From NCBI RefSeq assembly GCF_002087085.1, contig NZ_MWQY01000014.1, positions 1 through 64,000 of the forward strand: a DNA stretch of 64,000 nt. The letters are read 5' to 3'. Below are positions 2,803-58,601 of this stretch, in pieces. The notes beneath the pieces were generated by a model. It searched no databases, was not told the DNA's origin, and saw only the letters and a list, made by a program, of their open reading frames with translations. Every line of letters starts with the position of its first letter. The first letter of the stretch is position 1. The position numbers and the translations under genes are program-made.

Positions 2803-2807
2803 AACTT

Positions 2808-11265: not shown

Positions 11266-11270
11266 AAGAG

Positions 11271-12317: not shown

Positions 12318-12334
12318 TGACATACTTGCTTATA

Positions 12335-12372: not shown

Positions 12373-12378
12373 GGTTAT

Positions 12379-22220: not shown

Positions 22221-22222
22221 TA

Positions 22223-24100: not shown

Positions 24101-24112
24101 TACAGGGACTCC

Positions 24113-24619: not shown

Positions 24620-24638
24620 AGATACTCCTCTTCTTCTA

Positions 24639-24666
24639 TATTCGGCTGTTTGCCTGCGCCGGTTAA
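24639..24666 (-). promoter_or_regulatory. sigma28 promoter of flgN-flgK-flgL-fliW-csrA
   Basis: TTAA-N16-GCCGAATA on the minus strand. Confidence 0.65.
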
Positions 24667-24895
24667 GAAGAAAATGGAGTCCCCTTACCATGGAAAAAAC
24701 GGGGAAACCCTTTCTGCAACTTTCGCTGCACTAATCTATTGGTGTCCCGAATCGTGGGGATAAAAAGTTCCCGGAACGCGAATATACCGGAAAACAGGAT
24801 AAAATCCATGAAATGCATGAGCGTTACCAGTAAATCCCGGGGGGTGGAGGTGTTACTGCAAACTCATCCCCACGGTTCTGAACACTAAACACGTA

Positions 24896-34920: not shown

Positions 34921-34965
34921 CGGCAAAATAGTAGCACAAGAGATCACTATTTTAATAGATCTTCC

Positions 34966-34994
34966 TTGACCACGAAGAGGGGGTGAAATACTAT
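34966..34994 (+). promoter_or_regulatory. sigma70 promoter of glgC
   Basis: TTGACC-N17-TACTAT. Confidence 0.65.
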
Positions 34995-35013
34995 TGAGAA
35001 GGAAGGAGTTTTT

Positions 35014-36294
35014 ATGCCGGAGATTCTGGCCATTGTTCTTGGCGGGGGTAAAGGAACCCGTCTGTATCCGTTGACGCAGCAGCGAGCAAAACCGGCTGTT
35101 CCTTTCGGCGGCAAATACCGGCTCGTCGATATACCCATATCGAATTGTATCAATTCGGATATGAAGCAGATCTATATTCTGACTCAGTTCAATTCTGTTT
35201 CCCTGCATAATCACCTTGCACGGACCTATATCTTTGACGTTTTCAGCCGCGGTTTCGTGGAAATTCTTGCGGCGGAACAGACCTTCGAAAATACCAGCTG
35301 GTACGAGGGAACCGCAGATGCGGTGAGGAAGAATTTTCCCCATTTCAACGTCCAGAAACCCACCCATTACATAATCCTGTCGGGAGACCAGCTCTACCGG
35401 ATGGACTTCAGGGAGATGTTCCGAACCCATATTGACAGCAAAGCCGAAATCACCATCGCATCTACCCCGGTCGACCGGCTGGCCGCCACATCCCTGGGGA
35501 TACTGCAGGCGGACAGGAAGGGACGGATCAGCAGTTTCCTGGAAAAGCCTCCCCTGGATGTGGACATCGAACACCTGAGAATCCCGGAGAACCTGCATCC
35601 CGACCAGGCAATGAAGGATGCGGGGAAGAATTATCTGGCCAGCATGGGAATGTACATCTTCGATGCCCATGTCCTCGAACAGATGCTGAATAATGATAAA
35701 GCCGACTTCGGCAAAGAGATCATTCCGTTGGCCATCGAGTCCAGAAAGGTACAGTCCTATATTTTTACCGGCTTCTGGGAGGACATCGGAACCATCAAGA
35801 ACTTCTACGAAACAAATATAAATCTGGCAAGCTTGAATCCCGCCTTCAATTTTTATGATGAAAATATGCCCATTTATACCCATCGCCGTCATTTACCGGC
35901 TACGAAAATCAACTACTGCAATTTTTCTCTCTCCCTGGCTGCGGAAGGAAGCATCATAACCGATGCCAAGATCGGTAATTCCATAATCGGTATACGCACG
36001 ATAATTGAACCCGGCTCCGATCTGAACGGTGTAATCGTCATGGGGGCCAGCGAGTACGAGACACCGGAAGAACGAAAACAGAACCGGGAGCTCGGCCGTC
36101 CGGATATCGGCATAGGCAGAGGGACTCATATACACAGGGCAATCATAGACCAGAACTGTCGTATCGGCGACGGCTGCCGTATCGGGGTTGATGAGATGGA
36201 AAGAAAGGACGGCGACTACGGACGTTACCATATCCGCGACGGGATCATAGTGATCCCGAAAAATACGGTGATACCATCGGGGACGATTATCTAG
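35014..36294 (+). CDS. glgC: Glucose-1-phosphate adenylyltransferase
   Basis: GGGKGTRLYPLT..RAKPAVPFGGKYRLVD, GTADAVR, SGDQLYRMD, WEDIGT. Confidence 0.97.
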   Translation: MPEILAIVLGGGKGTRLYPLTQQRAKPAVPFGGKYRLVDIPISNCINSDMKQIYILTQFNSVSLHNHLARTYIFDVFSRGFVEILAAEQTFENTSWYEGTADAVRKNFPHFNVQKPTHYIILSGDQLYRMDFREMFRTHIDSKAEITIASTPVDRLAATSLGILQADRKGRISSFLEKPPLDVDIEHLRIPENLHPDQAMKDAGKNYLASMGMYIFDAHVLEQMLNNDKADFGKEIIPLAIESRKVQSYIFTGFWEDIGTIKNFYETNINLASLNPAFNFYDENMPIYTHRRHLPATKINYCNFSLSLAAEGSIITDAKIGNSIIGIRTIIEPGSDLNGVIVMGASEYETPEERKQNRELGRPDIGIGRGTHIHRAIIDQNCRIGDGCRIGVDEMERKDGDYGRYHIRDGIIVIPKNTVIPSGTII

Positions 36295-43393: not shown

Positions 43394-44464
43394 TCAATGC
43401 AGAACGGACAGTGGATCCACAGGTCGGTTATTCTTGTACAGTGCAAAATGCAGATGGGAACCGGTACTTCTTCCGGTATTTCCCATGGTACCAAGGCTCT
43501 GGCCCTGGCGAACCCTCTGACCTTCCCGTACTGCAACGGTGTTCATGTGCCCGTAGAGTGTCTGGTATCCCCTCTCGTGCTTAATAACCACGTACCTTCC
43601 GTAACCTGCCGGACGGTTCTCCACACTCAGCACCACTCCGTCCATGGCGGAGATAATTACTGTTCCCGTTGCATTCGCTATATCAATACCATAATGGAAA
43701 CGCCGCAGTCCGGTAAAGGGGTCCGAACGATACCCATAGGGCGAGGTGAGTCGTCCTTTTGTCGGGTAGATAATCAGGGTTCCCGTGGCTTTCTTGTACT
43801 CATAATCACTGATAGCCGCACCGGGAAGGAAAAGCACGTCCCCGGGCTTGATAAGGGCGCTTTCCAGATTGTTTGCGTCGAGAATCTGATTTACGCTGAT
43901 ACTTTTCGTGGCGGCGATATTTGAGAGATTGTCCCCGGGGCGCACTACATAGCGGACGCCGTCGTAGGAAGGTATTTTCAGACGGGTTCCCGGAACAATC
44001 CGGCGAACGTCTTCTATTCCATTATAGCTTATGAGGGTACCGATCTTTACGTCATACCTGAGAGCGATCTCTGAAAGAGTATCACCCCGTGTCACGGTAT
44101 GAACATTTTCCTTGATTCCTCCAAGATAGCTTGCCAGGGGGGGAAGGTCGGAAACCAGTTCCTCTTCCGAGGCCTGGCTCCCCTCGAGGTACGAAACCAT
44201 ACTGGCATACAACTGATCATCCGCAGGAAGATGAAGGAGCTCTACGTCTTTCGTATTCAGGGAAGGGACAAGGGAATAGAGCATAGCCGTTACAGCCAGA
44301 CTCACACCGAGAAACAGTGAAAGCCAGGCGATCTTTTCAGGGGTTTCCCGGATCTTCTCTATTCCCAGAGAAAGCCGGTTCCTCAGTTCAAGGCCTTCAA
44401 GGAATCCTGAGTGAGACGGTTTTCTGCGTTTACGTATAGTCTGCTGTTGTATCAGTTCAATCAT
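43394..44464 (-). CDS. M23 peptidase with two LysM domains
   Basis: TM, two LysM repeats, HYGID, YGHM, STGSHLHF; alternative GTG start at 44473. Confidence 0.92.
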   Translation of the reverse strand: MIELIQQQTIRKRRKPSHSGFLEGLELRNRLSLGIEKIRETPEKIAWLSLFLGVSLAVTAMLYSLVPSLNTKDVELLHLPADDQLYASMVSYLEGSQASEEELVSDLPPLASYLGGIKENVHTVTRGDTLSEIALRYDVKIGTLISYNGIEDVRRIVPGTRLKIPSYDGVRYVVRPGDNLSNIAATKSISVNQILDANNLESALIKPGDVLFLPGAAISDYEYKKATGTLIIYPTKGRLTSPYGYRSDPFTGLRRFHYGIDIANATGTVIISAMDGVVLSVENRPAGYGRYVVIKHERGYQTLYGHMNTVAVREGQRVRQGQSLGTMGNTGRSTGSHLHFALYKNNRPVDPLSVLH

Positions 44465-44546
44465 AACCTTCACTATTCATATCGACAATAAGGCACCAAC
44501 ATATTACTATAATGATCGTTCCCGGGGCCCGGAACTCGTTGAAATT

Positions 44547-46400
44547 ATGATAGAAAAGCAGCGTCTGACCAGATTCATCATCTTCGCAATCCTTACGGCA
44601 ATGGTTATCGTTTTCGTTGTCTGGCGATACACCGCAATAATGCTCTTTTCCTCCTCCGATGGGGCTGCACAGCACCGGACCCAGGGAATAGTAGAGCGAG
44701 GCCCGATTCTCGACAGGGACGGACGCATACTTGCCATTCAGACTCAGCTGGATACGGTGACCGCCTGGATGCCCAGCGTCAGCGATCCGGAAAAAACCTA
44801 CAATTCCCTTGTCCGGGTTCTCGACCTGGACAAAGAGGAATTGCAGAGCAAGTTTGAAACACGCAGCGGTTTTTTCTATGTTAAAAGAAAGATTTCCCGC
44901 AGCGAAAGCCGATCCATGCAGGAACTTTTATCCACCGAGGATCTCAAGGGAATATCCCTTATACCTGAATACGGAAGGGCGTACCCGGAAAAGAAACTGG
45001 CATCCCACGTAGTCGGATATGCCGGAACGGACAATGTCGGTCTGCTGGGGATCGAATATACCTACGACAAGATCCTGTATCCCCCCCCCGAGCCTGGAAG
45101 AACACGCTACGGAAACCAGCTGTTTTTAACCATCGATGTCAATCTTCAGCATATTCTGGAAGAACTTGCCACCGAGTCCTTTGAAGAGAACAAACCGGAA
45201 TCAATCACCCTCATAGCCGCGGAAGCAAAGACCGGAGAGATACTGGCGTATGTATCGATTCCCGGCTTTGATCCCAATACCTTTTCCGACTTCTCGCCCC
45301 AGGAACGGGTAAATGTTCCCGCCACAACGGCCTATGAACCCGGTTCGGTTTTTAAAGTCTTTTCCATAGCATCATTTCTCGAACTGGGAGGAATAGCTCC
45401 TGAAACCACCTTTTTCTGCGGTGGAAGCTACGATAACGTCGAACCCCACATCAACTGTCTGGGTTACCACGGGCTGGTGAATGCCGAGGAGATACTGAAA
45501 AAATCCTGCAATGCCGGAGCGGGATACGCCTCCGAAACAGTAACGGAAGAGGATTTTTACAGCCTGCTTACGGCTTTCGGTTTTGGTACGGAAACAGGAA
45601 TCCCCTTTCCTGGAGAAACAAACGGAATCTTCCGGAATCCCCAGAACTGGTCGGAGAGAACCAAACCCACCATAGCAATGGGCCAGGAGATTTCCGTCTC
45701 CGCTCTGCAGATTATCCAGGCCGCCAGCACCTTTGCCAATGACGGGGTAATGCTGCGTCCCATGCTGGTAAAAAAGATCGTCAGTCCGGAGGGAAAGACC
45801 CTGCAGGAGTTCCAGAGAGAACCGGTTCGACAGGTAGTATCGTCCCACGTGGCCAGGGAGATACTCATGATGATGGAGTCTGTAACCCAGTCCGACGGAA
45901 CCGCCCATCGTGCGGCCGTAGAGGGTATGAGGATTTCTGCGAAAACCGGGACGGCCCAGCTCATCGATCCCAGTACGGGAAAATATTCCGAGGAAGACTA
46001 TGTAGCCAGCTGTCTTGCCCTTTTTCCCAGCGACGACCCCAGGATCATTCTCTACGCGGCGATACATAAACCCAAAGGTCCGTCGACTTTTGGCGGTCGC
46101 ATAGCCGCTCCCCTGGTGGGAAAAGCCGCTGAAGAGGTTATCCGGCACCTGGGGATCCCCCGGGAAGGAGACAGACAGATAGACCATCCCGGCAGGGTCC
46201 AGATAAATGTTCCCTCTCCCCTACGCATAACAGACACCCTGCCGGATTTAACGGGCAGGCCCAAACGGGACCTGCTTCCCCTGTATAAGATCCCGGGGGC
46301 TGTAATTGAGATTCGCGGAGAGGGATGGGTCAGCGGACAGTCCCCGGCCCCCGGTACACCCATACGCGAAGGTATGCATATTGTGGTGGAGCTTGAATAA
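44547..46400 (+). CDS. ftsI: Class B penicillin-binding protein (FtsI-like) with C-terminal PASTA
   Basis: RGPILDRDG, EPGSVFK (SxxK), SCN, KTGTAQ, QSPAPG. Confidence 0.88.
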   Translation: MIEKQRLTRFIIFAILTAMVIVFVVWRYTAIMLFSSSDGAAQHRTQGIVERGPILDRDGRILAIQTQLDTVTAWMPSVSDPEKTYNSLVRVLDLDKEELQSKFETRSGFFYVKRKISRSESRSMQELLSTEDLKGISLIPEYGRAYPEKKLASHVVGYAGTDNVGLLGIEYTYDKILYPPPEPGRTRYGNQLFLTIDVNLQHILEELATESFEENKPESITLIAAEAKTGEILAYVSIPGFDPNTFSDFSPQERVNVPATTAYEPGSVFKVFSIASFLELGGIAPETTFFCGGSYDNVEPHINCLGYHGLVNAEEILKKSCNAGAGYASETVTEEDFYSLLTAFGFGTETGIPFPGETNGIFRNPQNWSERTKPTIAMGQEISVSALQIIQAASTFANDGVMLRPMLVKKIVSPEGKTLQEFQREPVRQVVSSHVAREILMMMESVTQSDGTAHRAAVEGMRISAKTGTAQLIDPSTGKYSEEDYVASCLALFPSDDPRIILYAAIHKPKGPSTFGGRIAAPLVGKAAEEVIRHLGIPREGDRQIDHPGRVQINVPSPLRITDTLPDLTGRPKRDLLPLYKIPGAVIEIRGEGWVSGQSPAPGTPIREGMHIVVELE

Positions 46401-48173
46401 ATGTTTGAATCCAACATCCGCAGCCTCTGCAGTATGTGGCCGGGTTTTCGAAGAGAGATTGCAGACAAATACGCTCCACACCCCGCTGTACGGATCATTC
46501 CCACCGAAACGGGGGAATCAGCCTTAAGCCTCGAAGGCCGCTTCCTCAGCACCCGGAGAGACCCGGTCCGGGAAGCGGAAAGGATAATAGAGGCCCGTTT
46601 TCCCGCCGCCCCCGATATTGCGGTATTTCTCCACTTTGGTCTCGGCTACGAACTGGAGGCTTTCTTTCGACGATATCCCGATACCCCCGTTATTCTGCTG
46701 GAACCCGATATTCCCCTCTTCATGACAGCCCTTGACGCCAGGGATTTCAGTAGGCTTTTCAGAAAGAAAGGTCTCGTACTGCTTCTTGATACCCCCCCCT
46801 CTTCTCTGGCGACTGTTCTGAACGACCGCTGCAACGATACAGTGGAGCTGTTTCCCATAAAGAGCATAGCCAGGCTCCACCCCGACTATCTGGAGGCTTT
46901 GAACGAATGGTTTCACCGCTTTCAGTCCCGAAGGGAGATAAACAGAAACACCCTGAAACGCTTCGGCCGCGTCTGGGTCCGCAACCTCCTCTCGAATCTG
47001 CAGGTTCTGGCGGAAGCCGTCCCCCTGGGGGAGCTTGAGGGAATATTGGACGGACGGCCCTGTCTCGTTCTTGCAGCGGGCCCCAGCCTGGATACCTTGT
47101 CCGATCATATCCACGAACTCAGAAAGAGAATGGTCCTTGTGGCGGTGGACACCTCAGCTGCATGGTGCAGACAGCGGAATATTCAGCCGGATTTTCTTGT
47201 GGTTGTGGACCCCCAGTACTGGAACACACGGCATCTTGATCCCGTGGACCGGGAACAGATACTGGTATCAGAATCATCCACCCATCCCGCCGTATTCAGA
47301 AGAATCGACGGACCCCGTTTTTTCTGTTCCTCTCTTTTCCCTCTGGGAAGCTTTCTGGAAAAGGACCTCGACATCCACGGGAACCTCGGGGCCGGGGGAT
47401 CCGTTTCAACCACGGCCTGGGATCTTGCGCGCTTTCTCGGCGCTGGAAAAATCTTCTGCGCCGGTCTGGATCTCGGTTATCCCGACAACCGAACCCATTA
47501 TTCCGGGAGTCTCTTCGAAGAGCTCTCCCATATCTGGTCCTGCCGTACGAACCCCTCCATGACACAGCATTTTCGTTACATCCGGGATGGAAGCCCCTTA
47601 ACAACCGAGTCCAATTCCGGGGAACCGGTTTTAAGCGACAGACGGCTCTCCCTGTATCGATGGTGGTTCGAGAACCGGATGAGTGAACCCGAATCCCCCG
47701 AGACCTTCACCCTGTCCCGGAAGGGGGTTCTGATCCGGGGAATGGAACATGCCGGCCCCCTGGAACTTCTGAAACTTCCGGAGATTCGGAATGAACTCGA
47801 CATGCTTCTTCCCGGAAAGGATTACCGAAGCCTGCGGGGAAATCCTGATACATCTGCAGTAATTATCAAGGGCCTGACCGAGCTGGATACGTCCCTCATG
47901 GAGATGGAAATCCTCTGCCGCCGGGCGCTGGACGCCCTGGATAATCCCGCCGGCAGCCGCTCGGAACTGCTGGCTGCCCTCGGAACGCTGGACGCGGAAA
48001 TCATGGCAAATCCGGCCAAGGATATAGCCGGTTTCCTCCTTGATGCCGAGCCTGAGGCATCGGAAGATCCCCTCGTGGCTTCCAGAAAAGTCTACACATC
48101 TATTCTTGATTCGGTGCTGTATCACCGGGAACATCTTCAGCGGGCCCGGGGAATGATCAGTACCGGACCCTAA
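46401..48173 (+). CDS. Motility-associated factor (Maf/DUF115) glycosyltransferase-like protein
   Basis: AAGPSL, PDFLVVVDP, GGSVST, GLDLGY motifs. Confidence 0.78.
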   Translation: MFESNIRSLCSMWPGFRREIADKYAPHPAVRIIPTETGESALSLEGRFLSTRRDPVREAERIIEARFPAAPDIAVFLHFGLGYELEAFFRRYPDTPVILLEPDIPLFMTALDARDFSRLFRKKGLVLLLDTPPSSLATVLNDRCNDTVELFPIKSIARLHPDYLEALNEWFHRFQSRREINRNTLKRFGRVWVRNLLSNLQVLAEAVPLGELEGILDGRPCLVLAAGPSLDTLSDHIHELRKRMVLVAVDTSAAWCRQRNIQPDFLVVVDPQYWNTRHLDPVDREQILVSESSTHPAVFRRIDGPRFFCSSLFPLGSFLEKDLDIHGNLGAGGSVSTTAWDLARFLGAGKIFCAGLDLGYPDNRTHYSGSLFEELSHIWSCRTNPSMTQHFRYIRDGSPLTTESNSGEPVLSDRRLSLYRWWFENRMSEPESPETFTLSRKGVLIRGMEHAGPLELLKLPEIRNELDMLLPGKDYRSLRGNPDTSAVIIKGLTELDTSLMEMEILCRRALDALDNPAGSRSELLAALGTLDAEIMANPAKDIAGFLLDAEPEASEDPLVASRKVYTSILDSVLYHREHLQRARGMISTGP

Positions 48174-48232
48174 AGTTTCTGCCCCCTGCAGCCGAACAGT
48201 AAAGTAAGAAGGAAACAAGAACTTCTTGTTAA

Positions 48233-50347
48233 TTAAACGGTATGCTTATCTGACGTCCAGGCATACCGTTTTTTTATTGCCTCCAGGATCTGGTACTCCC
48301 GGAAGGGTTTGACGATAACCGCATTGCCTCCTGCATTCATAAACTCCTGTGCCTCGTCGCTTCCGGAATGAGCTGTCAGGGCGATAACAGGCACCCGGGA
48401 AAAATCTTCCCGGGCTTTAAGAATGCGGGTGGCTTCCTTACCATCCATGACTGGAAGCCCGATATCCATAAAAATAAGGTCGGGTTTATCCTCTATGGCC
48501 CTGTCTACCGCTTCCTGTCCGTTTGAGGCCTCCAGTACCGTATACCCGGCACTTTCCAGAACTCTTCGAAGGTACAGCATGTTTATACTCTCATCTTCAA
48601 CAATCAGGATCCTCTCTACAGAATCATTTCCGTCGGCGTTCACGGATACTTCGCTCTCTCCGCTTGTTTCCGGTCCATCCGGTTTATCACTTTTCCCCGG
48701 AGGGATGCTTAGCGTAAAGGTTGATCCTTTTCCTTCGACGGATTCAACATTCAGACGCCCTTTCATGAGTCCCACAAGGGATTTGACAATAGCCAATCCC
48801 AGACCTGCACCCTGGTGCGTTTTTGTATAGGGATTCTCGAGCTGTCGAAAGGAGTCGAAAATGCTGGACAGTTTCTCCTCCGGAATGCCCAGGCCCTCAT
48901 CTGCGACTGAAATTACAAGCTCCGAATCCACATGAGCCCTTACAGTAACGGTTCCTCCCTCGGAGTATTTAACAGCATTGGATACAAGGTTAATTATCAC
49001 CTGTCCAATTCGCGTCCGGTCTCCGGGAAAAAGGATTGCAGGATCCGGAAGTTCGGAGATTATTTTTATACCCTTTTCTCCTGCCGGTTTCTCCACCATC
49101 CTGATACAGTTTTCAATCACCTCCCTGGGACTGAAATTCTCTATCAGCAGGCGCAGACGGGAATTCTCCAGACGAGCTGTATCCAGAAGATCATCAATAA
49201 GCTTCAGCAGATATTCAGCTGAATAATCAGCCATATCGACGTACTCGGACTGTACTTCCGAGAGTTCGGTATTTCTCAGGAGAGCTGTCATACCCAGAAA
49301 ACCATTCACCGGTGTACGCAGTTCATGGCTTATATTTGCAAGAAAAAGGGTCTTTGCCCTGACAGCCTTTTCGAGGTTCTCCTGGATCTCTCTGCTCCGG
49401 ACCAGTTCCCGGTTCAGGGCAGCGGTTTTCTGTGAAACCTGTCGACGGAGTGTAAGAGTCCAGGATAATCCGATGAGAAAGAGGGCTCCCACACTTATGA
49501 GTACAAGGCGGGCTATTCTCGATCCCAGCAGTCGTCTCTCCTCGATCAGCCCGAACCACTTTTCATAAATCCTGTCATATTCACCATTGATTTTTATCAG
49601 GTTAAGTCCCTCGTTCAATATGGCGAGCAGCTTTGTATCGCCCTTTCGAACGGCAATGCAGTATGATCCGGTCAAAACCGATTCAGGAATAACCTTAAGG
49701 GATGTAATATCGTAGCGGTCAAGGATGATTCCCCCTTGAGTAAGGGATGCCAGGGCACAGTCGCCCTCTCCCTCAGCAAGACCGCGGATTACTTCTGTGA
49801 CGGAATCCTTTACAACAAGGGATTTTTCATAGCCCTTCTCCAGCAGATAATCATGAGCCAGGTCTCCCCGCTGTACCAGTATTCTGGAGTCCCTTGCATC
49901 CTCCATAACCCTGATATCTGAATTCCGGGGAACAAAGAGATTATAGGAAGCTATGAAATGGGGTATGGTGAAATCTGCTTTCCTGGCCCTTTCGGGGGTC
50001 CTGAACATTCCCATAAGAACATGAATCTCTCCTTCCTCAAGTTCCTCCCGGACCTCATGCCATGGGCCAAGATCGATAATCATCTCCAGCCCCAGGACTT
50101 CCTGTATGGCCTTCATGATATCCACATTGAAGCCTGATGGTTCGCCGTCTCCGTCAAGGAATTCAAAAGGCGGATATTGCCAGTCTCCTTTTACAACGAG
50201 GGTGGTGGTACCCGCCTCCTGAATAGAGACGGTTTGAACTCTGGAAGGTGTTTCATAAATAGCGTATTCTTCAGCACATCCGGATAATATGATTAAAAAA
50301 GTAGTAAAAATCAGCAATATCCGGAGCTTACTCCCTGAAGTGTTCAT
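48233..50347 (-). CDS. Hybrid sensor histidine kinase: SBP family 3 sensor, TM, HisKA, HATPase, REC
   Basis: YPPFEF/GFNVDI; FLANISHELRTP; NLVSNAVKYS; GAGLGL; IVEDE...FMDIGLP...KP. Confidence 0.92.
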   Translation of the reverse strand: MNTSGSKLRILLIFTTFLIILSGCAEEYAIYETPSRVQTVSIQEAGTTTLVVKGDWQYPPFEFLDGDGEPSGFNVDIMKAIQEVLGLEMIIDLGPWHEVREELEEGEIHVLMGMFRTPERARKADFTIPHFIASYNLFVPRNSDIRVMEDARDSRILVQRGDLAHDYLLEKGYEKSLVVKDSVTEVIRGLAEGEGDCALASLTQGGIILDRYDITSLKVIPESVLTGSYCIAVRKGDTKLLAILNEGLNLIKINGEYDRIYEKWFGLIEERRLLGSRIARLVLISVGALFLIGLSWTLTLRRQVSQKTAALNRELVRSREIQENLEKAVRAKTLFLANISHELRTPVNGFLGMTALLRNTELSEVQSEYVDMADYSAEYLLKLIDDLLDTARLENSRLRLLIENFSPREVIENCIRMVEKPAGEKGIKIISELPDPAILFPGDRTRIGQVIINLVSNAVKYSEGGTVTVRAHVDSELVISVADEGLGIPEEKLSSIFDSFRQLENPYTKTHQGAGLGLAIVKSLVGLMKGRLNVESVEGKGSTFTLSIPPGKSDKPDGPETSGESEVSVNADGNDSVERILIVEDESINMLYLRRVLESAGYTVLEASNGQEAVDRAIEDKPDLIFMDIGLPVMDGKEATRILKAREDFSRVPVIALTAHSGSDEAQEFMNAGGNAVIVKPFREYQILEAIKKRYAWTSDKHTV

Positions 50348-52209
50348 TCGTTCTGCATAACCGGGTTCTTAAGATTCAACAGGTCATCACTGGAAAGAAA
50401 ACTGATACCTGTTTTCAGACCACCAATCGAAAGCTGCGACAGGGGTTCTCCCCCCTCAGCTTCCGAGAGTACGAACAGATCGGCTGGAAATGACTCAATG
50501 AAAAGCAGCTTATCAACCAGAAGATAGTAATCCTCCCGGCTGTTTCTGATCTTTATCAGGGTATCCTCGGAAACAAAATTGTCGCTCCAGAAAAGATACC
50601 CCTCACAGGTATAGACCGGACAGCCCCGATACCGGACCCGTCCATCCCCGTCGTCCCGGAACCCTGTTTTCTCCGGTTTCTCATGCTCGAGAAAGACTGT
50701 ACCGTCCACAGCAATTGTGTGCCGCTTGTACCGGGCAAAATAGATCTTTCTCACGGATGCTTCCACCGGAATGCTGATACAGAACCGGGCTCCCTGATTC
50801 TCCCTGTTCTCAAGGCTGACGGTGGCGCCGGGTATACGTCCAATCTCCTCGGCAACGATATCGAGGCCTATACCTCTTCCCGCTTCCAGGGAAATAATCT
50901 CACTGGTGGAAAACCCCGGGGAGGTAATTATTCTGAACAGTGAAGCAGAGGAATCCAGACCGTGCTCCAGAGCCTTGTTCCGGATGGCTTTTTCATCCAT
51001 TCCTCTGCCGTCATCCTGAATATCGATACGGATCTCCTTGTCGCTCCGCTGGTACCGGACGGTGACCTCTCCCCGGGGGGATTTTCCCTCTTTCAGACGT
51101 GCGGCAGGCACTTCGATACCGTGACTTACGGCATTTCGCAGAAGCTGAACCAGGGGTCCCCTCAACCTGGGGACAAAGCAGCTCTCAAGCAGCTGTTCCC
51201 CGCCCTGCAGCAGACAACGGGCGTCTTTTCCCTGCTCCGCCGCGCTGTGATGAACTATTTCAGGCAAATCGTGAAAGATCGTTTCGAAAGGAACAAAACG
51301 GGTTGCCTGAAGGGCCTGACCGATACCGTCAAAGACCTCCGTAAGGCCGGAAGAGCCGCCTTTTATCGATTGGTCAGTCAGCTGTGTATGTATTTTCCCT
51401 TTGAGGTAATTAAACCAGATAGAGATAAGTTCATGGCGATTAATAATCAGCTGAGAATCGTCTTTGCCGGCTTTATCCCTGCTTTTCCGCGCCGGGGTAT
51501 CCGGCAGATACTGGTCCCAGTTCAGCCTGGTAAGGAAAACCCTTTTTACCTGGTCTACCTTGACCGCGTTAAAAAGATCCTTCTCGGGCCGGTGGGTGGT
51601 AAAAAAATATTCAGGGCTTATGTTTTCTTCCTCAAAGCCCTGGGACAGGTCCGGAAAGCTCCGTATAACATTGACAATCTGTTCCAGGTTATTCAGTATC
51701 AATACGGCTTTTGGATACAGCATCTCCGTCGGATCCTCAAATTCACAGATCATCCGGTAGAGGTACTCGCCCCTGTCCCGGGCCTCCCTGAGAAGCACGA
51801 GCTGGAACTCATTCAGGACTTCGAATCCCGCAAGCTTTTCTTCAGCCCTTCCCGCCGGGCTTGAGCCGGATTCATGAAGCGACGAAGGGGTATCACCGGA
51901 AGCGATACCTTCCCGGGAAACTGTATCTTCGATCCGCGAAACGGATTCGAAGAGTCGATTGAGATGTCCCTCGTACTGCGGTTCCTCTTTCAATTCCTGG
52001 AGTACCGATTCTGCTACATGCGTAAGATCCGCGATACTCTTTTTGCCCAAATGGGCCGCTTCCGATTTTATGCTGTGCATGAGACGGAAGGCATTGTCTA
52101 TGTCATCCCCCGTTGCGGTCCTGGACTCCAGCCTGGACAGAAGGGGATTCAGCCTCGCTAGATAATCCCGGGTGTCCCGTATAAACATCTTCTGATAATA
52201 GGCTGTCAC
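50344..52209 (-). CDS. CheA-like kinase (Hpt, P2-like, HATPase, degenerate CheW-like tail)
   Basis: FRLMHSIKS Hpt; LLRNAVSHGIE; DDGRGMD; PGFST; GRGIGLDIV; GTG start. Confidence 0.8.
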   Translation of the reverse strand: MTAYYQKMFIRDTRDYLARLNPLLSRLESRTATGDDIDNAFRLMHSIKSEAAHLGKKSIADLTHVAESVLQELKEEPQYEGHLNRLFESVSRIEDTVSREGIASGDTPSSLHESGSSPAGRAEEKLAGFEVLNEFQLVLLREARDRGEYLYRMICEFEDPTEMLYPKAVLILNNLEQIVNVIRSFPDLSQGFEEENISPEYFFTTHRPEKDLFNAVKVDQVKRVFLTRLNWDQYLPDTPARKSRDKAGKDDSQLIINRHELISIWFNYLKGKIHTQLTDQSIKGGSSGLTEVFDGIGQALQATRFVPFETIFHDLPEIVHHSAAEQGKDARCLLQGGEQLLESCFVPRLRGPLVQLLRNAVSHGIEVPAARLKEGKSPRGEVTVRYQRSDKEIRIDIQDDGRGMDEKAIRNKALEHGLDSSASLFRIITSPGFSTSEIISLEAGRGIGLDIVAEEIGRIPGATVSLENRENQGARFCISIPVEASVRKIYFARYKRHTIAVDGTVFLEHEKPEKTGFRDDGDGRVRYRGCPVYTCEGYLFWSDNFVSEDTLIKIRNSREDYYLLVDKLLFIESFPADLFVLSEAEGGEPLSQLSIGGLKTGISFLSSDDLLNLKNPVMQNE

Positions 52210-52880
52210 CTGGCACTCCTCTTCTGCTGCATGGAATTAAAAAGGCGTAATGATTTTCTGCGGATAACAGAACTGGTATCCTGCATACCTTTGATGATGA
52301 TCTCCCTGAAAGCGGAATAGTTATCTATCGCCATAAGGGTTTCCAGAATAGAGCTCTTTACTGCAATATCACCACGACGAAAAAGCGAAAAGAGATCCTG
52401 AGTTGCATAATCAATCTTGAGCTTCCCTATGGCGCGAACAGAAGATATCACGACCTGGGGATCCTTATCCTGGAGCGCCTTCCGCAGATAGACGTAACTG
52501 CTTTTCTGTCCACTGTTTCCAAGACGCAGGGCTGCAAAGGATCGCTGGTAGGGAGTTTTTCCATTCAGCAGGGTATTCCCCAGGCTGTGAAGACTCTCAT
52601 TTTTACCCCAGTTTCTTTCCGGTTGTGTCTTTTTTACCCCCTGACTTTTACGAAAGCCTGAGGCTTCCGGACGTGGAGGAAAATCGAGAATTCTCCTGGC
52701 AGACTTGAAACTGGAGATTGATCGATAGGCCTCCACTACCCTGGAAAAAGCAAGGTTGTCCGGCCGCTGGCCGGTATCCGGATGCAGCTCCATAACCATT
52801 CGCCGGTAGGCCCTTTTAATCTCCGAGTCAGGTGCCGATTCAGGGACACCCAGGATTCTAAAACACTCCCTAGCCAGCAC
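52206..52880 (-). CDS. J-domain protein with C-terminal HEAT repeats
   Basis: ILGV...EIKRAYRR...HPD; HEAT-like LRKALQDKDPQV, KGMQDTSSVIR; GTG start with SD GGAGG. Confidence 0.85.
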   Translation of the reverse strand: MLARECFRILGVPESAPDSEIKRAYRRMVMELHPDTGQRPDNLAFSRVVEAYRSISSFKSARRILDFPPRPEASGFRKSQGVKKTQPERNWGKNESLHSLGNTLLNGKTPYQRSFAALRLGNSGQKSSYVYLRKALQDKDPQVVISSVRAIGKLKIDYATQDLFSLFRRGDIAVKSSILETLMAIDNYSAFREIIIKGMQDTSSVIRRKSLRLFNSMQQKRSAR

Positions 52881-54330
52881 AATCAGCCTCCCTGCCCGCA
52901 TCCAGGGACTTGATCTCCTTCAGAATACTCCATAAAGCAATCGAACATTCCCGCCTGAGCCCTGGATCAGCTGATTTTTTTTGCCTGCGGGCAAGCTCCA
53001 GTATAGCATTGATATCCTCGGAAAACTCAGGATCGATAAAGAATCTTCGTCCCCGGTATTCCCGTTCAACCCGGGAAATAAGAATATCCATATCCTTGAT
53101 GCCGGAACCACACTTATCCCCGACCGCTTCCTTTATCATGATCTTCATGGTTTCAGAGATCCTTCCTGAAGGACTCTGCACGGTAACAGTCAGCATGCCG
53201 CTGGAGTGAAGAACGAACTGTATTTCGATTTTCGGTCGGCCCTGGAGAGCGGGAGGAATTTGGGGAAGCATAATCCGGCTGAGAGAAACAGTCCGGGACG
53301 GGTCTTCTGTGCTTCTCTGAATAACATGGATTTCTGCCCGTCGCTGATTATCCGCAAGGGTGGTAAAAATCCTTTTCTCCAGGGCCGGGAGAGGTCTGTC
53401 CTTTTGCATCATCCAGAACGGTCTGCCCCAGTCGATCTCCAGTCCGAAATCCGACGGAGATATCCCGACAGTTCCCTGCACCGGAGCCGTTCTCCTCTGA
53501 AACAGAAGCAGGGCACCCCTGGCTGCCGTATCCGCAGGACAAATTCTTACAGGTACCGATTCACGGAAGATCCTGCTGACACAGCTTTGAATGCACGGAA
53601 TATGAGATCCGCCTCCCGCAAGAAGGACGGTATCGATCTCTGATGTCCGGTGTCCCGATGACCGTAACAGCTGCCGCACAAGATCTTCTATGCGGCCGAT
53701 CCTGCTTCCAAGTATTTTCTCATAGTCCCGGCGATCAAGGCTCACCTGTACACCCTGCACGGAGGAGGTATATTCCGATGAAGAGCTCAGTGCGATCTTG
53801 AAGGCGTCGGAAACATTCTGTAATTTTCCGATTATGTTTCCCGTCTTCTTTTTAAGAAGTCCGCACATGTCCCGGGTAAAGCTGCCTCCCCCTGTGGAGC
53901 TATCGCTTAAACATCGATTCAGGCTGATATCATTGCCTTTAATCTCTACAAGGGATGCTTTGAAACTGCTCTCTCCGAAATCGAGAACCAGTACCGTACC
54001 GGTTGTACCATGCAACATGGCGGCCGCCGTTGCTTCTGCCTGGGGGATCAAACGTATCCGATGGAAACCGGCTTTTTTTGCGGCATCAGTAATCTCCCGG
54101 GATTGAATATCTCCGATACCTGCCGGAACAGCCACAACAGCGGTATCCGCATAGCCTGCAGTCTGCGCTTCGACGAGGGACTTAATCTGTTTGAAGCGCA
54201 TTTCCGTACTGCAGCCGGGCGCTGCCGGATGACTGGAGGATCCGTACCTGTCAAGAAACGTTTTTATTTTTTTGCCGTCAATTATCGTAACCGATGTATT
54301 CGCTGTACCAAAATCTATGCCTACTACCAT
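52870..54330 (-). CDS. Divergent Hsp70/DnaK-family protein
   Basis: VGIDFGT, VAVPA, VLDFG, LAGGGSHIP, FTTLADNQ, GRPKIEIQF. Confidence 0.85.
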   Translation of the reverse strand: MVVGIDFGTANTSVTIIDGKKIKTFLDRYGSSSHPAAPGCSTEMRFKQIKSLVEAQTAGYADTAVVAVPAGIGDIQSREITDAAKKAGFHRIRLIPQAEATAAAMLHGTTGTVLVLDFGESSFKASLVEIKGNDISLNRCLSDSSTGGGSFTRDMCGLLKKKTGNIIGKLQNVSDAFKIALSSSSEYTSSVQGVQVSLDRRDYEKILGSRIGRIEDLVRQLLRSSGHRTSEIDTVLLAGGGSHIPCIQSCVSRIFRESVPVRICPADTAARGALLLFQRRTAPVQGTVGISPSDFGLEIDWGRPFWMMQKDRPLPALEKRIFTTLADNQRRAEIHVIQRSTEDPSRTVSLSRIMLPQIPPALQGRPKIEIQFVLHSSGMLTVTVQSPSGRISETMKIMIKEAVGDKCGSGIKDMDILISRVEREYRGRRFFIDPEFSEDINAILELARRQKKSADPGLRRECSIALWSILKEIKSLDAGREADCAG

Positions 54331-54335
54331 ACCTT

Positions 54336-54902
54336 TTATCTATCGGTTTTTTCCGACAGCGAGATTATCAGTTCTACCTCCCCAAGAGGCCGTCCAACCT
54401 TGCCTGCTATTATTTTGGCGTCTATTCCCTTTCTTTTCAGCTCGAGTATTTCTTCTTTTATACCGGCCCCGCCGGTATTTTCACGGGAAGTATCGGTTTT
54501 TGTTTGCACAGCGTCTTTCCCCTCATTCCCGGTGGAAGATGAAGGTTCCGCGGATTTCTTGACCGGTTCCTCGATGACCTCGATGCTGAGGGGTTTATGC
54601 CGTGCCAGATGCAGATAATCTGTCCGGGAGCTGTCATCCCGTTTCTGGATCTCCCCCTGAAGAATTCGGATTCTCTTGTCGGCCTTTGACACTTCGTCCT
54701 TCAGACGGCGGATACTCTCTTCGATAAGCCGGATATTCCGGTCTGTTGTACCGTTCATTTCGACCAGAAGCGAGTCCAGTTCTGATTCAATTTCCATCAA
54801 CAGCTTTTTAGGCCTCACCGTCCTCTTATGTACTATCCGGAAAACCAGGATAAAAAGGATCCATGCAAGACCGTTTACGAGCAGGATTATTCCAAGAGTC
54901 AT
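54336..54902 (-). CDS. Conserved flagellar-operon hypothetical protein (TM, coiled coil, C-terminal HTH-like)
   Basis: N-terminal TM; TDRNIRLIE; LGEVELIISL tail. Confidence 0.75.
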   Translation of the reverse strand: MTLGIILLVNGLAWILFILVFRIVHKRTVRPKKLLMEIESELDSLLVEMNGTTDRNIRLIEESIRRLKDEVSKADKRIRILQGEIQKRDDSSRTDYLHLARHKPLSIEVIEEPVKKSAEPSSSTGNEGKDAVQTKTDTSRENTGGAGIKEEILELKRKGIDAKIIAGKVGRPLGEVELIISLSEKTDR

Positions 54903-54904
54903 AT

Positions 54905-55231
54905 TTATCCGCTTATGTCTATTTTCTTGCCCAGGTCAGGGTCGCTGTAGTAGTTGCGGGATTCGTCCTTCGTTTCATTTTTTTCCTCTTTGCCTTTTTT
55001 ACGCTTTCTCCCTCCCCGGGATTCCTCGTCATCATCGTGAATCTTCTCGGGACCGTCGGAAAGAGGATTGGTCTGGTTGACACTTGAATCCTTCTGCTCG
55101 GTTTCACGGACCAGTTCACTGCCCGCTATAACCTGCTGCAGGTGCAGGCCCTGCTTCTGCTGGGCCTGATCCCTTCCTACCTGATTCATATGCATAAATA
55201 GTGTCTGCAGATCGATTGGTTTAATGGACAT
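54905..55231 (-). CDS. Conserved hypothetical protein downstream of fapA
   Basis: MSIKPIDLQ...DPDLGKKIDISG termini. Confidence 0.75.
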   Translation of the reverse strand: MSIKPIDLQTLFMHMNQVGRDQAQQKQGLHLQQVIAGSELVRETEQKDSSVNQTNPLSDGPEKIHDDDEESRGGRKRKKGKEEKNETKDESRNYYSDPDLGKKIDISG

Positions 55232-57174
55232 CAGTGGTTTTTGGAAAAGTCCTCCTCAAGGGCTTCGTACTTCGTAACCTTTACCTCATTCAACTCGTTG
55301 ATAAAGGTGACGTTTTTAAACTCATTCCGAATCTTAAGGCTCGCATCTTTGATAACCACTTTAACGCCGGGATATACCTTCCCTGAAGCGGAAACCTTTC
55401 CGTTTACCTTGAGAGATGCGAGATACTCCTGGATTTTTTTTATCTCTTCCTTTTTTTCATCCCGTTTTACTTCAATCTTTCGCTGCTGTCCCTGAAGTTC
55501 CTCAAGATACTGCTCCTTTTCTTCAGGCAGCGCCTTTTTCATTTTCTTGATATTCTCCAGGGTGTGGATATTCAGCTCGATCTCTTCCAGCTGATCATCA
55601 AAGGTCTTTATCTCTTTTTCCAGTCGCTGAATACTCTCGATACTCTTCGGATCGTAACCAACCTCGACGACAGTCTCCGCACCGGCCACTGAACCGATGT
55701 TCTTCGCATGGACCTCTTCACTGGCCCGCAGATGACCGCCTACGATGGTCGCCCGTTTTCCCTGGCAGATAATACGCTGATTAGCATCCACGGAACTGTT
55801 AATGATTCCGTCGCTGACAACGACGTTTTCACCGGATTCAACGTTGGAGTTTTCTATGAACTTTGCCCACACCGTGCGGCCGGCCCGGACAGTGCCGCCG
55901 CCCCGGCCGTTGACACCCTGATGGATGATGATATCCCCTTCAGCGTCCAGTTCGCATTTTCCGACGTTTCCGACAACCTCAATATTACCCGCGGCTTTAA
56001 CTTTAAAACCGTCTTCCACACCGCCTTTTACATAGACGGTCCCCAGGAATACCACGTTACCGCCGGTTTTCAGATTGACGCTTCCGTTGACAACGTGAAT
56101 CGGTTCCACATTCAGCTTGTCGTTCACGATGACAACCTGGCCGTTTATGGCCGCCACGGCGGTCATACCGTCTTCAGAAAGATTGACGTTCTTGCCTATT
56201 CCAAGGTTGACATCTTTTCCGTTTTTGGCCGGCAGCAGTTTTCCGGTTACGCTTCGTCCGTTTTTGCCTTCGCCGGCGGGTACCTTCCGGGCAAGAACCT
56301 GACCTTCGACTACATTCTGAACAATATTCTGTTCCTTGAAATCGACTTTACCGTTCTTCTCTTTCAGCTGGATCTTGTTGGAATCCCGTTCAAAATTATA
56401 CAGGATTCGAGCGTCTTCTCCATCCTGAGGTTTCGTACCCTCCGCCACCAGTATCGACTCGTTGTATACGGGACGATCGATAAATGCATTAATAGTCTCA
56501 TCCCTGAGACCATGGATGATGCCGTTGTTTTTGAGAAAATTTTCTATTACTTCATAGCTGAGATCTGAACCGCCCTCTCCCGGAGGCCGTACAACTATAT
56601 AGGCCTTCATCTCGAAATCGGTGATATCCACTGTCATGATAGGATCATTAGCCGGATTGTATGCGTATTCGCCAACCGGGATGTAATCTCCCGAGGCCTG
56701 CTTTACCACCTGGGCTATCATGTTTTTATCGAAATGGCTGACCCCTCGGCGATCAAGAGCATCAAGGGCCTGTCGTTCAGTCGCCTTTTTCCCCCCGCCC
56801 ACTGGAGGGCTGACCTTTAATAATATACCCTCAGGAGATAAACGGACAAAAACATCCCCGTTTCGAGTCTCCTCTTTTCCGTCGTCATCTCCGGCAAAAC
56901 CGAGATCGATGTCAAGGGCCTCTTCCTCTGGCAGCTGTTCTTCTGCTTTTTTATAGGCGATAAGGATGCAATCCTTCCTGCCGATACCGAAGGTCCCCCG
57001 GCTGCCGGGTTCGAGGAGTTCATATTCTATGTCTTTAAGCGGAATGCCCAGTTCAATGGAAGCCTGAGTCAGTGCATCTTCGATACTGGGACCGCTCACA
57101 TTGACGGATCTGCGGGTCTTATCCTCTTCCGCCTGGCTTCGCATGTACTCCCGGATACGGGACAATCCGACCAT
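55231..57174 (-). CDS. fapA: FapA (DUF342) family protein with Jag_N-like N-terminus
   Basis: Jag_N-like GTFGIG; G.P.DGEDA; beta-helical GNVVFLGTVYVKG repeats; follows fliA. Confidence 0.85.
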   Translation of the reverse strand: MVGLSRIREYMRSQAEEDKTRRSVNVSGPSIEDALTQASIELGIPLKDIEYELLEPGSRGTFGIGRKDCILIAYKKAEEQLPEEEALDIDLGFAGDDDGKEETRNGDVFVRLSPEGILLKVSPPVGGGKKATERQALDALDRRGVSHFDKNMIAQVVKQASGDYIPVGEYAYNPANDPIMTVDITDFEMKAYIVVRPPGEGGSDLSYEVIENFLKNNGIIHGLRDETINAFIDRPVYNESILVAEGTKPQDGEDARILYNFERDSNKIQLKEKNGKVDFKEQNIVQNVVEGQVLARKVPAGEGKNGRSVTGKLLPAKNGKDVNLGIGKNVNLSEDGMTAVAAINGQVVIVNDKLNVEPIHVVNGSVNLKTGGNVVFLGTVYVKGGVEDGFKVKAAGNIEVVGNVGKCELDAEGDIIIHQGVNGRGGGTVRAGRTVWAKFIENSNVESGENVVVSDGIINSSVDANQRIICQGKRATIVGGHLRASEEVHAKNIGSVAGAETVVEVGYDPKSIESIQRLEKEIKTFDDQLEEIELNIHTLENIKKMKKALPEEKEQYLEELQGQQRKIEVKRDEKKEEIKKIQEYLASLKVNGKVSASGKVYPGVKVVIKDASLKIRNEFKNVTFINELNEVKVTKYEALEEDFSKNH

Positions 57175-57176
57175 TA

Positions 57177-57965
57177 CTACATAATCCCCTTCTTGATATT
57201 CGTAAGCTTGGCCCTCAGGCGCATGATCGCCTTGGTATGCAACTGGGAAATTCGCGATTCAGTCACCTCCAGGACCTTTCCTATCTCCTTCAGAGTGAGA
57301 TCTTCATAATAGTAGAGTACAAGAACCTTTTTTTCTTTTTCCGGCAATTCATTTATCGCTTCGATAATTACCTTTTTAATCTCTTCTTTTTCTACAATAA
57401 TGTCCGGATTCAGACTCTGGGGTGACTCAATACTGTCGACAATCGATATTTTGTCGTTTTCCTCCCCGGAATACCAGACATCATTCAGGGACATTATGGA
57501 AGTACCGCTGATCTTGACCATCGCCCGGTGATACTCGTCAATATCCATACCCATTTCCGCGGCTATCTCCTGATCGGAAGCACTTCGTCCCAGGGAGGCT
57601 TCGAGACGCTGAACGGTATCCTCTATCTCCCGTGCTTTCTGACGCACCGACCGCGGAACCCAGTCGATGGACCTGAGCTCATCGAAGATTGCCCCCCTGA
57701 TGCGGGTTACCGCATAGGTTTTGAATTTCACGTGCTTTTCAGGGTCAAACTTGTTTATCGCATCAATCAGTCCAAAAACTCCGAAACCCACCAGGTCATC
57801 GAACTCAACGTTATGCGGCATTCCCATGGCGACCTTTCCGGCAACGTATTTAACCAGAGGCGCATACTGCTTTACAAAAGCATCGCGTATTTTTGGATCC
57901 CGGTTTTTCTTGTAAAGGGCCCAGAGTTCTTCTTCAGTTTTTCCCTGCAATGCGGTCTCTGCCAT
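57177..57965 (-). CDS. fliA: RNA polymerase sigma-28 factor (FliA/WhiG)
   Basis: [39 protein letters not shown]. Confidence 0.96.
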
Positions 57966-57968
57966 ATC

Positions 57969-58601
57969 TTATCCTTCCTGGTCCCGTTTCATCATCGTTT
58001 TCACAGCCCTGGCTACATCTCCCGGATTCTGGGTCTCCCCAAGTATATCCACCTCAGACTCCCTTCCTCCGGACGAAGGTTCCTCGTCGGATTCGGAACC
58101 CCAGCCGGAATCGAAGGAATCGCTGAAGGCGTCCAGACTGGGAAGACCATCTAGCTCTTCAACCGAATCTACCGCTTCCTCGCCTTCGTCATCGGAAACA
58201 GAACCATCAGGTTCCGATGAAGTGGAAGCCTGAATTTCCTCAACAAAACCGTCACCTTCGGAAAAGAGATCACCAGCTCCGGAGGCAGTATCGAATTTTC
58301 TCCCGGTCTCATCATCCTCGAGGGTAATATCAACGCTTCCACCCGGGCTTTTCTCAGGCTCATCCTCAGTGCCTGCATCCTGGTCCACCGATTTTTTATT
58401 CTCAGGGATAAGCTCCGGAAACAATGTTCTTCCCAGGAGAGCTACCCCCATTCCCAGGCCGGCAAAAACAAGCCCGGACAGGAAGGCCCTGACAATAATA
58501 CTCAGAAAGCCAACCCCGCTTATAAGTCCGATTAAAAACGATGCAATAAACGCGAAACCGGCAGGGCCGGCCGCAAACAGCCAGGACACCACTTTATGCA
58601 C
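57969..58601 (-). CDS. Conserved spirochete membrane protein (2 TM plus acidic tail)
   Basis: Lies between flhG and fliA; LFPEL motif. Confidence 0.75.
   Translation of the reverse strand: MHKVVSWLFAAGPAGFAFIASFLIGLISGVGFLSIIVRAFLSGLVFAGLGMGVALLGRTLFPELIPENKKSVDQDAGTEDEPEKSPGGSVDITLEDDETGRKFDTASGAGDLFSEGDGFVEEIQASTSSEPDGSVSDDEGEEAVDSVEELDGLPSLDAFSDSFDSGWGSESDEEPSSGGRESEVDILGETQNPGDVARAVKTMMKRDQEG

Follow-up and report, generated by a model that had tools for sequence, protein, structure and literature searches.

Organization of the locus

We investigated the genes at the distal end of a flagellar superoperon in a 64,000-nucleotide stretch of DNA (positions 1 to 64,000 of the forward strand of contig NZ_MWQY01000014.1, RefSeq assembly GCF_002087085.1), hereafter the window, which belongs to a genome of 4.2 Mb in 79 contigs (G000). 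Four tightly packed minus-strand genes, encoding an Hsp70-like protein, a co-chaperone that joins a J-domain to HEAT repeats (J-HEAT), a divergent CheA kinase and a hybrid sensor histidine kinase, form the 3' tail of this superoperon (Table 1). The run reads flhB-flhA-flhF-flhG-flgV-fliA-fapA-yjfB-TM/HTH (transmembrane/helix-turn-helix), followed by the Hsp70-like, J-HEAT, CheA and hybrid kinase genes; flhG, flhF, flhA and flhB, which lie farther upstream on the same strand, were recognized with Pfam and NCBIfam models.

Table 1. Genes of the distal part of the flagellar superoperon, listed from the 3' end of the run (window coordinates; aa, amino acids)
Feature	Positions	Strand	Basis
Hybrid sensor histidine kinase, 704 aa	48233..50347	-	Pfam; NCBIfam partial matches only
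Divergent CheA kinase, 621 aa, GTG start	50344..52209	-	Pfam; ortholog residues; AlphaFold and Foldseek
J-HEAT co-chaperone, 231 aa (ATG at 52901) or 224 aa (GTG at 52880)	52206..52901	-	Pfam DnaJ and HEAT_2
Hsp70-like protein, 486 aa	52870..54330	-	Pfam HSP70; alignments; AlphaFold model
TM + HTH-type flagellar-operon protein, 188 aa, directly 5' of the cassette	54336..54902	-	Conserved position
YjfB-like small protein, 108 aa	54905..55231	-	Conserved position; submodule in PMC11607428
fapA	55231..57174	-	Pfam FapA 241.8 bits, FapA_N 164.8 bits
fliA (sigma-28)	57177..57965	-	NCBIfam FliA_WhiG 302.3 bits, exceeds cut-off
flgV-like gene, 210 aa, between flhG and fliA	57969..58601	-	Position as bb0268/flgV in PMC11607428

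A preliminary description of this DNA had noted four packed genes at 48233-54330 that leave one short gap and otherwise overlap, and the scan of open reading frames (ORFs) bears this out. A gap of 5 bp (54331-54335) separates the TM/HTH gene from the Hsp70-like gene, whose stop codon (52870-52872) lies inside the start region of J-HEAT, with an overlap of 11 bp counted from the GTG or 32 bp from the ATG. A GTGA overlap (52206-52209) joins J-HEAT to CheA, and an ATGA overlap (50344-50347) joins CheA to the hybrid kinase. For J-HEAT, the GTG at 52880, which is the start taken in the preliminary description, agrees with the starts of the orthologs, and the ESM Atlas record begins there too. Pfam likewise upholds the domain calls of that description (Hsp70, J-domain plus HEAT, a Hpt/HATPase kinase and an SBP_bac_3 hybrid kinase, with the HPD motif present in the J-domain), as well as its remark that the window contains no gene for CheW, a methyl-accepting chemotaxis protein (MCP), a stand-alone receiver or GrpE, which was checked by domain searches and a Pfam sweep of 45 further ORFs. 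Among the small proteins encoded just upstream, the YjfB-like and flgV-like products had no match in the Pfam scan, and the 188-aa protein matched DUF6115 and SpiroCoCo_C weakly; its TM/HTH name comes from a submodule described in PMC11607428.

Conservation and distribution of the cassette

Chance does not explain the arrangement: all related loci examined show the same order of genes. Ten relatives were compared by tblastn with 13 window proteins over 20 kb surrounding their Hsp70-like genes. The order flhF-flhG-flgV-fliA-fapA-108-188-Hsp70-like-J-HEAT-CheA (108 and 188 denoting the two small proteins by length) was found in eight, and the contigs of the other two stop at the Hsp70-like gene. 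A pattern scan for J-HEAT, with one genome per species, returned 14 loci, all of them spirochetal and all 14 in the same order; six repeat genomes of the tblastn set, and one contig ends ~100 codons into CheA. The trio of Hsp70-like, J-HEAT and CheA genes occupies the flagellar tail in 18 genomes in all (Marispirochaeta and uncultured Spirochaetales), genome G245 among them, and the linkage noted in the window holds in related genomes. More broadly, several families of the class share the tail position after fapA-yjfB-TM/HTH.

In an even phylum sample, J-HEAT (E≤1e-12) was found in 4 of 401 genomes, including G000, that is, in 3 of the 400 others. The Hsp70-like, J-HEAT and CheA genes are thereby seen as an accessory cassette restricted to a set of free-living Spirochaetales. 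Its distribution is nested: the Hsp70-like gene alone, the Hsp70-like gene with J-HEAT, these two with CheA (18 genomes), and all three with the hybrid kinase (3 genomes). The first state is represented by G031, a 1.2-Mb genome that we take to be Borreliaceae-like, in which flhF-flhG-fapA-TM/HTH is followed by the Hsp70-like gene only. The second is found in G148 and G323, where the Hsp70-like and J-HEAT genes are followed by convergent genes and the kinase is not at the locus; searching these two genomes for CheA outside the locus returned only P4-centered, paralogue-level matches, although with this query the linked ortholog of G245 scores no better.

The gene 3' of CheA is convergent in most loci, and therefore CheA ends the operon there; in the related loci, too, no cheW, cheY or MCP gene lies directly downstream. 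The hybrid kinase does not belong to the conserved unit into which the preliminary description had placed it. Among the related loci examined, a full-length ortholog was found only in G002 and G004, and because the gene is thus present only in the window genome and two close relatives, it is a recent addition confined to the sub-lineage of the window.

A degenerate Hsp70 beside a constrained J-domain protein

The Hsp70-like protein matches Pfam HSP70 (PF00012) with 159.8 bits against a cut-off of 20.6, over profile positions 118-501 only. It comprises a reduced actin-like nucleotide-binding domain, a substrate-binding beta domain (~295-396) and a three-helix C-terminal bundle (409-484), and its AlphaFold model reaches a predicted local distance difference test (pLDDT) score of 81.3, with the beta strands of 295-396 at ~75-88. 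Orthologs outside the sub-lineage of the window are longer, at 533-576 aa, and the four that were scanned score 350-544 bits against the same family. In the window protein and its orthologs from G002 and G004, ~70 residues of subdomain IB are gone, including the K70 segment, and the hydrophobic interdomain linker is absent. In the window, NEPTAA (E171) has changed to PQAEAT, and GGGTFD (within DxGGGTFD) to GESSFK. The K70 segment, NEPTAA and GGGTFD are lost in these 3 of 19 orthologs and kept in the other 16. From these residues, the ATPase of the window protein appears to be degenerate. The protein does not reach the NCBIfam DnaK equivalogs (134.7 vs 648 for NF001413; 128.8 vs 822.55 for TIGR02350); intact orthologs also remain under the NF001413 cut-off (610.6, 450.2 and 527.6 vs 648), and the NCBIfam matches include no HscC model.

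The ratio of nonsynonymous to synonymous substitution rates (dN/dS) of the whole Hsp70-like gene against G004 is 0.28, the highest of the run, compared with 0.006-0.18 for its neighbors. The nucleotide-binding domain gives 0.33 (vs G004) and 0.21 (vs G002), and all regions of the gene are well under 1. Identity to G004 is 90% in the C-terminal bundle and 47-61% in segments of the nucleotide-binding domain, the bundle being 69% identical to that of G002, and the reading frame is unbroken in all three separate assemblies.

We also observed that the gene of the closest relative, G004 (L014 9957-11237), has lost ~75 further residues, in the region of subdomain IIB, leaving an open frame of 426 aa; decay of the nucleotide-binding domain would still be under way. 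G000 contains two additional short Hsp70-profile matches (C20:30499-30831 and C45:151059-151343), in frames of 403 and 382 aa.

J-HEAT reaches 45.7 bits against Pfam DnaJ (cut-off 27.8) and 33.1 bits against HEAT_2. It does not belong to DnaJ class A or B, as Pfam finds HEAT_2 instead of DnaJ_C or DnaJ_CXXCXGXG. The HPD tripeptide is invariant in 20 of 20 orthologs. In the sub-lineage with the decayed Hsp70, no part of the cassette is under tighter constraint than the J-domain, whose dN/dS is 0.07 (vs G004) and 0.04 (vs G002). According to the preliminary description, the J-domain would activate the adjacent Hsp70; the HPD motif is indeed intact, but since the catalytic motifs of the window Hsp70 are lost, that step is doubtful here. 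The HEAT repeats are likely to be the part that binds a client or an adaptor.

A word-indexed protein search with J-HEAT retrieved only 9 close relatives, with no informative names, whereas an exhaustive profile search identified 226 proteins at E≤1e-30. Among the best 150 representatives, 97 are of ≤340 aa, and in 93 of these 97 an HPD lies close to the N-terminus; the other representatives are giant HEAT-repeat proteins. The ESM Atlas contains clusters combining J and HEAT_2 with 74, 144 and 138 members. Judged by these matches, the J plus HEAT architecture is a modest, unnamed family. An 'IDFP' motif was considered as a kinase-linked feature, being found right behind the J-domain at 17 of 20 loci and missing at both loci without CheA; yet only 14 of the 97 short representatives carry a similar motif, and the candidate was rejected. 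In two orthologs (L018 10375-11394 and L031 9708-10478), the linker that joins the J-domain to the HEAT repeats contains long, basic, low-complexity insertions of ~110 and ~40 residues.

A divergent CheA and a lineage-specific hybrid kinase

The domains of the CheA-like kinase are retained to different degrees at the sequence level. P1 matches Pfam Hpt at 40.2 bits (vs 24.6), with His45 invariant in 17 of 17 orthologs; P2 scores 22.7 bits in the window protein against a cut-off of 23, which 5 of 6 orthologs exceed. P4 matches HATPase_c at 53.1 bits, and all 17 share its N, G1 and G2 boxes without change (N359, H363, G364, E366, D399, D400, G401, G403, G444, G446, G448, L449 and D450). P3 has no match to Pfam H-kinase_dim, and the C-terminal 136 residues of the window protein match no Pfam family at E≤10. 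The NCBIfam CheA equivalogs are far under their cut-off (170.5 vs 950).

The AlphaFold model of residues 262-621 (pLDDT 85.2; predicted template modeling score, pTM, 0.78) has P3-P4-P5 of solved CheA structures as its top Foldseek matches, over 370-375 columns (6s1k_A, 8c5v_A, 3ja6_C, 1b3q_A), with 374 columns and E 2.3e-28 for E. coli CheA (6s1k_A) and 371 columns for 1b3q_A. Two long helices (residues 2-41 of the modeled fragment) align with P3 of 1b3q, 4xiv and 6s1k, isolated CheA P4 structures match the model at a template modeling score of ~0.8, and the beta-rich C-terminal domain aligns with P5 of 6s1k, 1b3q and 2ch4. When a profile of the P5 region was searched against the PDB, the four best hits were all to T. 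maritima CheA P5 and correctly registered, but with E of only 0.18-0.28. Pfam CheW is recognized in P5 of 4 of the 17 orthologs (best E 7.2e-6). The alignment of the model over P3-P4-P5 argues for a five-domain CheA (P1-P5), as modeled, with a P5 diverged in sequence. The kinase does not seem to lack a coupling domain: the PDB profile, the CheW matches of the orthologs, the model and Foldseek all point to a diverged P5/CheW-like domain at the C-terminus.

The hybrid kinase consists of a lipobox-like N-terminus, a periplasmic SBP_bac_3 domain, a transmembrane segment, HisKA (68.4 bits), HATPase_c (99.5 bits) and a receiver (Response_reg, 96.3 bits), with no Hpt domain. The H-box His and the acceptor Asp of the receiver can be seen in the translation. 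All NCBIfam equivalogs score far below their cut-offs for this protein.

Expression

Consensus promoter and terminator scans showed no excess over shuffled sequences (16 vs 12.9 ± 3.3 and 22 vs 16.8 ± 4.4, respectively), and the 59-bp spacer 3' of the hybrid kinase shows no terminator fold (z-score 0.64). An internal sigma-28 promoter was considered and rejected: the pattern matches once in the whole window, within fliA, with 0.93 matches expected. RNA libraries of two studies, four metatranscriptome runs in total, contain contigs that mostly match the window at 95-100% and cover parts of all four genes; the uncovered parts are no sign of silence. One contig (52814-52980) spans the junction of the Hsp70-like and J-HEAT genes. 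The preliminary description had the four genes co-expressed with flagellar assembly genes; of this, the tail position on the fliA-fapA run stands as a conserved feature, and it makes co-expression plausible. In B. burgdorferi, bb0268 is co-transcribed with bb0272-bb0264, according to the text of PMC11607428.

Genomic context

Elsewhere in G000, a canonical grpE-dnaK-dnaJ operon lies on another contig, and its DnaJ has both DnaJ_C and DnaJ_CXXCXGXG. There are also 28 MCP-signal matches, 9 CheW matches, of which 6 are in short CheW-domain frames (166-472 aa), and 4 other CheA paralogues.

Several further features of the window were recorded. An MptE-like gene (46401-48173, plus strand), with a domain that we take to be that of Maf-type flagellin-modification proteins, is convergent on the operon end and adjoins the cassette in 5 of 5 same-genus genomes. 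A 195-aa minus-strand ORF at 47631-48218 has no family match and lies inside this opposite-strand gene; it was treated as a shadow frame, and the hits that tblastn gives for it in relatives most likely reflect the conserved MptE-like gene on the other strand. Beside the latter are genes for a penicillin-binding protein transpeptidase with PASTA (44547-46400, plus strand) and an M23/LysM peptidase (43394-44473, minus strand). A late flagellar cluster comprises two flagellin genes (11259-13227), fliD (13810-15822), flgN, flgK and a flagellin-like flgL (20976-24691), and two FlaA sheath genes (2204-3542). It is flanked by genes for PilZ-domain proteins (9123-9944 and 16763-17857, both plus strand), one with PilZN3, and from these a cyclic di-GMP input to motility looks likely. 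The stretch 31475-35892 (minus strand) encodes a DEAD-box helicase of 1090 aa that contains an MrfA Zn-binding domain and, after it, an RNase_H_2-superfamily protein; the two resemble an MrfA/MrfB-type repair pair.

Functional interpretation

These observations are best accommodated, at a probability of roughly 0.55, by a private chaperone pair and an orphan CheA that share the end of the operon, as opposed to one obligate chaperone-gated phosphorelay. The cassette would consist of two separable units, the Hsp70-like/J-HEAT pair and CheA, because the pair occurs without the kinase in two genomes and Hsp70 occurs alone in G031; this distribution also speaks against a chaperone pair that exists only for the kinase. 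CheA would be a less likely client of the pair than some flagellar or polar component shared by all carriers. With its ATPase predicted to be degenerate, the Hsp70-like protein of G000 would most likely act as an ATP-independent holder or scaffold through the substrate-binding domain and the well-kept C-terminal bundle. The J-domain, being still strongly constrained, probably acts on an Hsp70 that is intact; the housekeeping DnaK would be the simplest candidate. CheA would be an active kinase, made along with the flagellar genes, that signals to CheY-type receivers encoded elsewhere, possibly still via CheW and receptors. The hybrid kinase would contribute sensing of a periplasmic solute, and phosphoryl groups may pass in either direction between its receiver and P1/P2 of CheA.

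Several points weigh against this interpretation. CheA lies directly 3' of J-HEAT in 18 of 20 J-HEAT loci, so a functional tie between pair and kinase is possible. The switch of the J-domain to DnaK is read from patterns of selection, and the domain could still bind the decayed nucleotide-binding domain; moreover, the dN/dS values are rough, with dS of ~0.8-1.1 against G004 and saturation against G002. The phylum sample scored at most seven candidates per genome, and weak relatives of J-HEAT may escape it. The RNA-library contigs may hold DNA, and a contig covering two genes does not equal one transcript, which makes them a weak hint. That bb0264 is an Hsp70-like gene is our assumption, from its annotation as an Hsp70 and from the gene order in G031. 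Finally, the links among the four proteins, the role and client of the pair and the receiver of CheA are putative.

The preliminary description had united all four proteins in one chaperone-plus-phosphorelay machine, with the Hsp70/J-HEAT pair folding, scaffolding or gating CheA in place of a CheW/receptor array and the hybrid kinase as its input. Every junction that overlaps or nearly does so, the near-constant placement of CheA after J-HEAT, the lack of cheW, cheY and MCP genes at the locus and a P5 that escapes Pfam CheW in 13 of 17 orthologs, including that of the window, which fits an altered coupling partner, would all suit such a machine, as would the genetic position of the Hsp70-like StkA of M. 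xanthus upstream of the Dif chemosensory proteins, in the account of PMC4319316. We nevertheless regard it as unlikely, three of its premises having fallen away. The pair persists without the kinase in G148 and G323, and Hsp70 without either in G031; the fold of the kinase appears complete over P3-P4-P5, and with a diverged P5-like domain present, the idea that the pair replaces the CheW/receptor array loses its premise. The hybrid kinase occupies its position in 3 genomes only, and these are exactly the ones in which the ATPase motifs are lost, so an ATP-driven gating cycle by Hsp70 is improbable here. Prediction of a complex between the CheA-like protein (alignment of 17 rows) and J-HEAT (20 rows) gave scores of 0.00 and 0.06, where the mark is 0.32, and speaks neither way.

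Just as improbable, in our estimate, is that the Hsp70-like gene is here a functionless, decaying relic and that only J-HEAT (with the housekeeping DnaK), CheA and the hybrid kinase matter. The loss of subdomain IB and the catalytic motifs, the additional residues missing in G004 and the highest dN/dS of the run would be expected of a relic; however, all three genomes, each assembled separately, retain an open frame, dN/dS stays far under 1 throughout the gene, the C-terminal bundle is 90% identical to that of G004 and 69% to that of G002, the model is confident, and overlapping or near-abutting junctions are kept with both neighbors.

We give somewhat less credence still to a rewiring of the chaperone pair within the sub-lineage of the window, in which the pseudo-ATPase Hsp70 would hold or scaffold clients by means of its substrate-binding domain and C-terminal bundle, its still constrained J-partner would recruit DnaK, and in the same step of evolution the hybrid kinase would have been coupled to CheA, whose P1 would stand in for the missing Hpt. 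Together these would give the flagellar switch a sensory input that is scaffolded by chaperones and independent of receptors. Least probable is that the genes merely hitch-hike at the operon end for convenient expression and act outside flagella, for instance in a two-component pathway of another kind or in general proteostasis: no flagellar component is known among the three families, and the cassette evolves much faster than the flagellar genes (28-37% identity to G020, compared with 82% for FliA), but the place after fapA-yjfB-TM/HTH is retained across several families, with Hsp70 also in the Borreliaceae-like genome, G000 already has a canonical grpE-dnaK-dnaJ operon, and CheA belongs to a family of motility-pathway kinases.

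Flagellar assembly and regulation in spirochetes are incompletely understood, and under the favored reading, a private chaperone pair beside an orphan CheA, the pair and the extra CheA at the end of the superoperon are candidate motor or polar assembly factors and a candidate flagellum-linked signaling branch, respectively. Work on the cassette could also bear on pathogens if the last gene of the Borreliaceae-like tail is, as we presume, bb0264. A natural Hsp70 with a putatively decayed ATPase and a constrained J-partner would further offer a test case for ATP-independent function and partner switching.

Comparison with known systems

The preliminary description knew of no system with this composition, and a full-text literature search likewise found none, the figures and supplements of PMC11607428, which possibly draw the tail genes, lying outside that search. 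Individual parts nonetheless have recognizable counterparts.

The E. coli HscC protein with the J-proteins DjlC and DjlB exemplifies a specialized Hsp70 with a co-encoded J-protein. In both cases, a shortened, DnaK-derived Hsp70 lies beside its own J-protein, which has a non-DnaJ C-terminal domain, no nucleotide-exchange factor is encoded in the locus, and the housekeeping dnaK-dnaJ-grpE genes are elsewhere. Unlike HscC/DjlC, the pair described here has a HEAT-repeat C-terminus, resides in a flagellar superoperon and has lost the Hsp70 catalytic motifs.

Canonical CheA, as in T. maritima (1b3q) or the E. coli core signaling unit (6s1k), shares with the kinase the P1-P5 order, the phospho-acceptor His, the N/G1/G2 boxes and the predicted P3-P4-P5 fold. 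In contrast, P5 here is unrecognized by Pfam CheW, P2 is just under its cut-off, equivalog scores are far below theirs, and the gene stands as the last conserved one of a flagellar superoperon with no cheW, cheY, cheB, cheR or MCP gene alongside. Bacillus subtilis likewise has cheA within a flagellar superoperon, its fla/che operon, with flhF, flhG and the sigma-28 gene nearby; however, cheA is there accompanied by cheB, cheW, cheC and cheD and lies upstream of sigD, whereas the cheA gene described here is solitary and comes downstream of both fliA and the chaperone pair.

Periplasmic solute-binding (Venus flytrap) domains are characteristic of BvgS/EvgS-type kinases. The hybrid kinase resembles these in its fusion of a periplasmic SBP_bac_3 domain to HisKA, HATPase_c and a receiver, and an EvgS model matches its kinase and receiver part, but it has one solute-binding domain rather than two, no PAS domain and no C-terminal Hpt.

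StkA of M. xanthus, as presented in PMC4319316, is a non-housekeeping Hsp70 homolog with genetic ties to motility and a CheA-type pathway; StkA, however, belongs to another phylum and to motility based on type IV pili and exopolysaccharide, its kinase is not adjacent, and that account mentions no J-HEAT protein.

The closest counterpart in gene order is the tail of the flgB superoperon of Borrelia burgdorferi (bb0294 to bb0264), for which the text of PMC11607428 describes the submodule flhF-flhG-flgV-fapA-small protein-TM/HTH; figures and supplements apart, that text contains no occurrence of hsp70, dnak or dnaj and does not discuss the Hsp70-like gene. In the Borreliaceae-like G031, the Hsp70-like gene holds the last place of such a tail, which, unlike that of the window, is without fliA, J-HEAT and CheA, and by counting genes down from flhF we infer that it corresponds to bb0264. 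To all this the window adds a putatively decayed Hsp70 ATPase next to a constrained J-partner, fold evidence for P5 in the CheA of the cassette, and a lineage-specific hybrid kinase.

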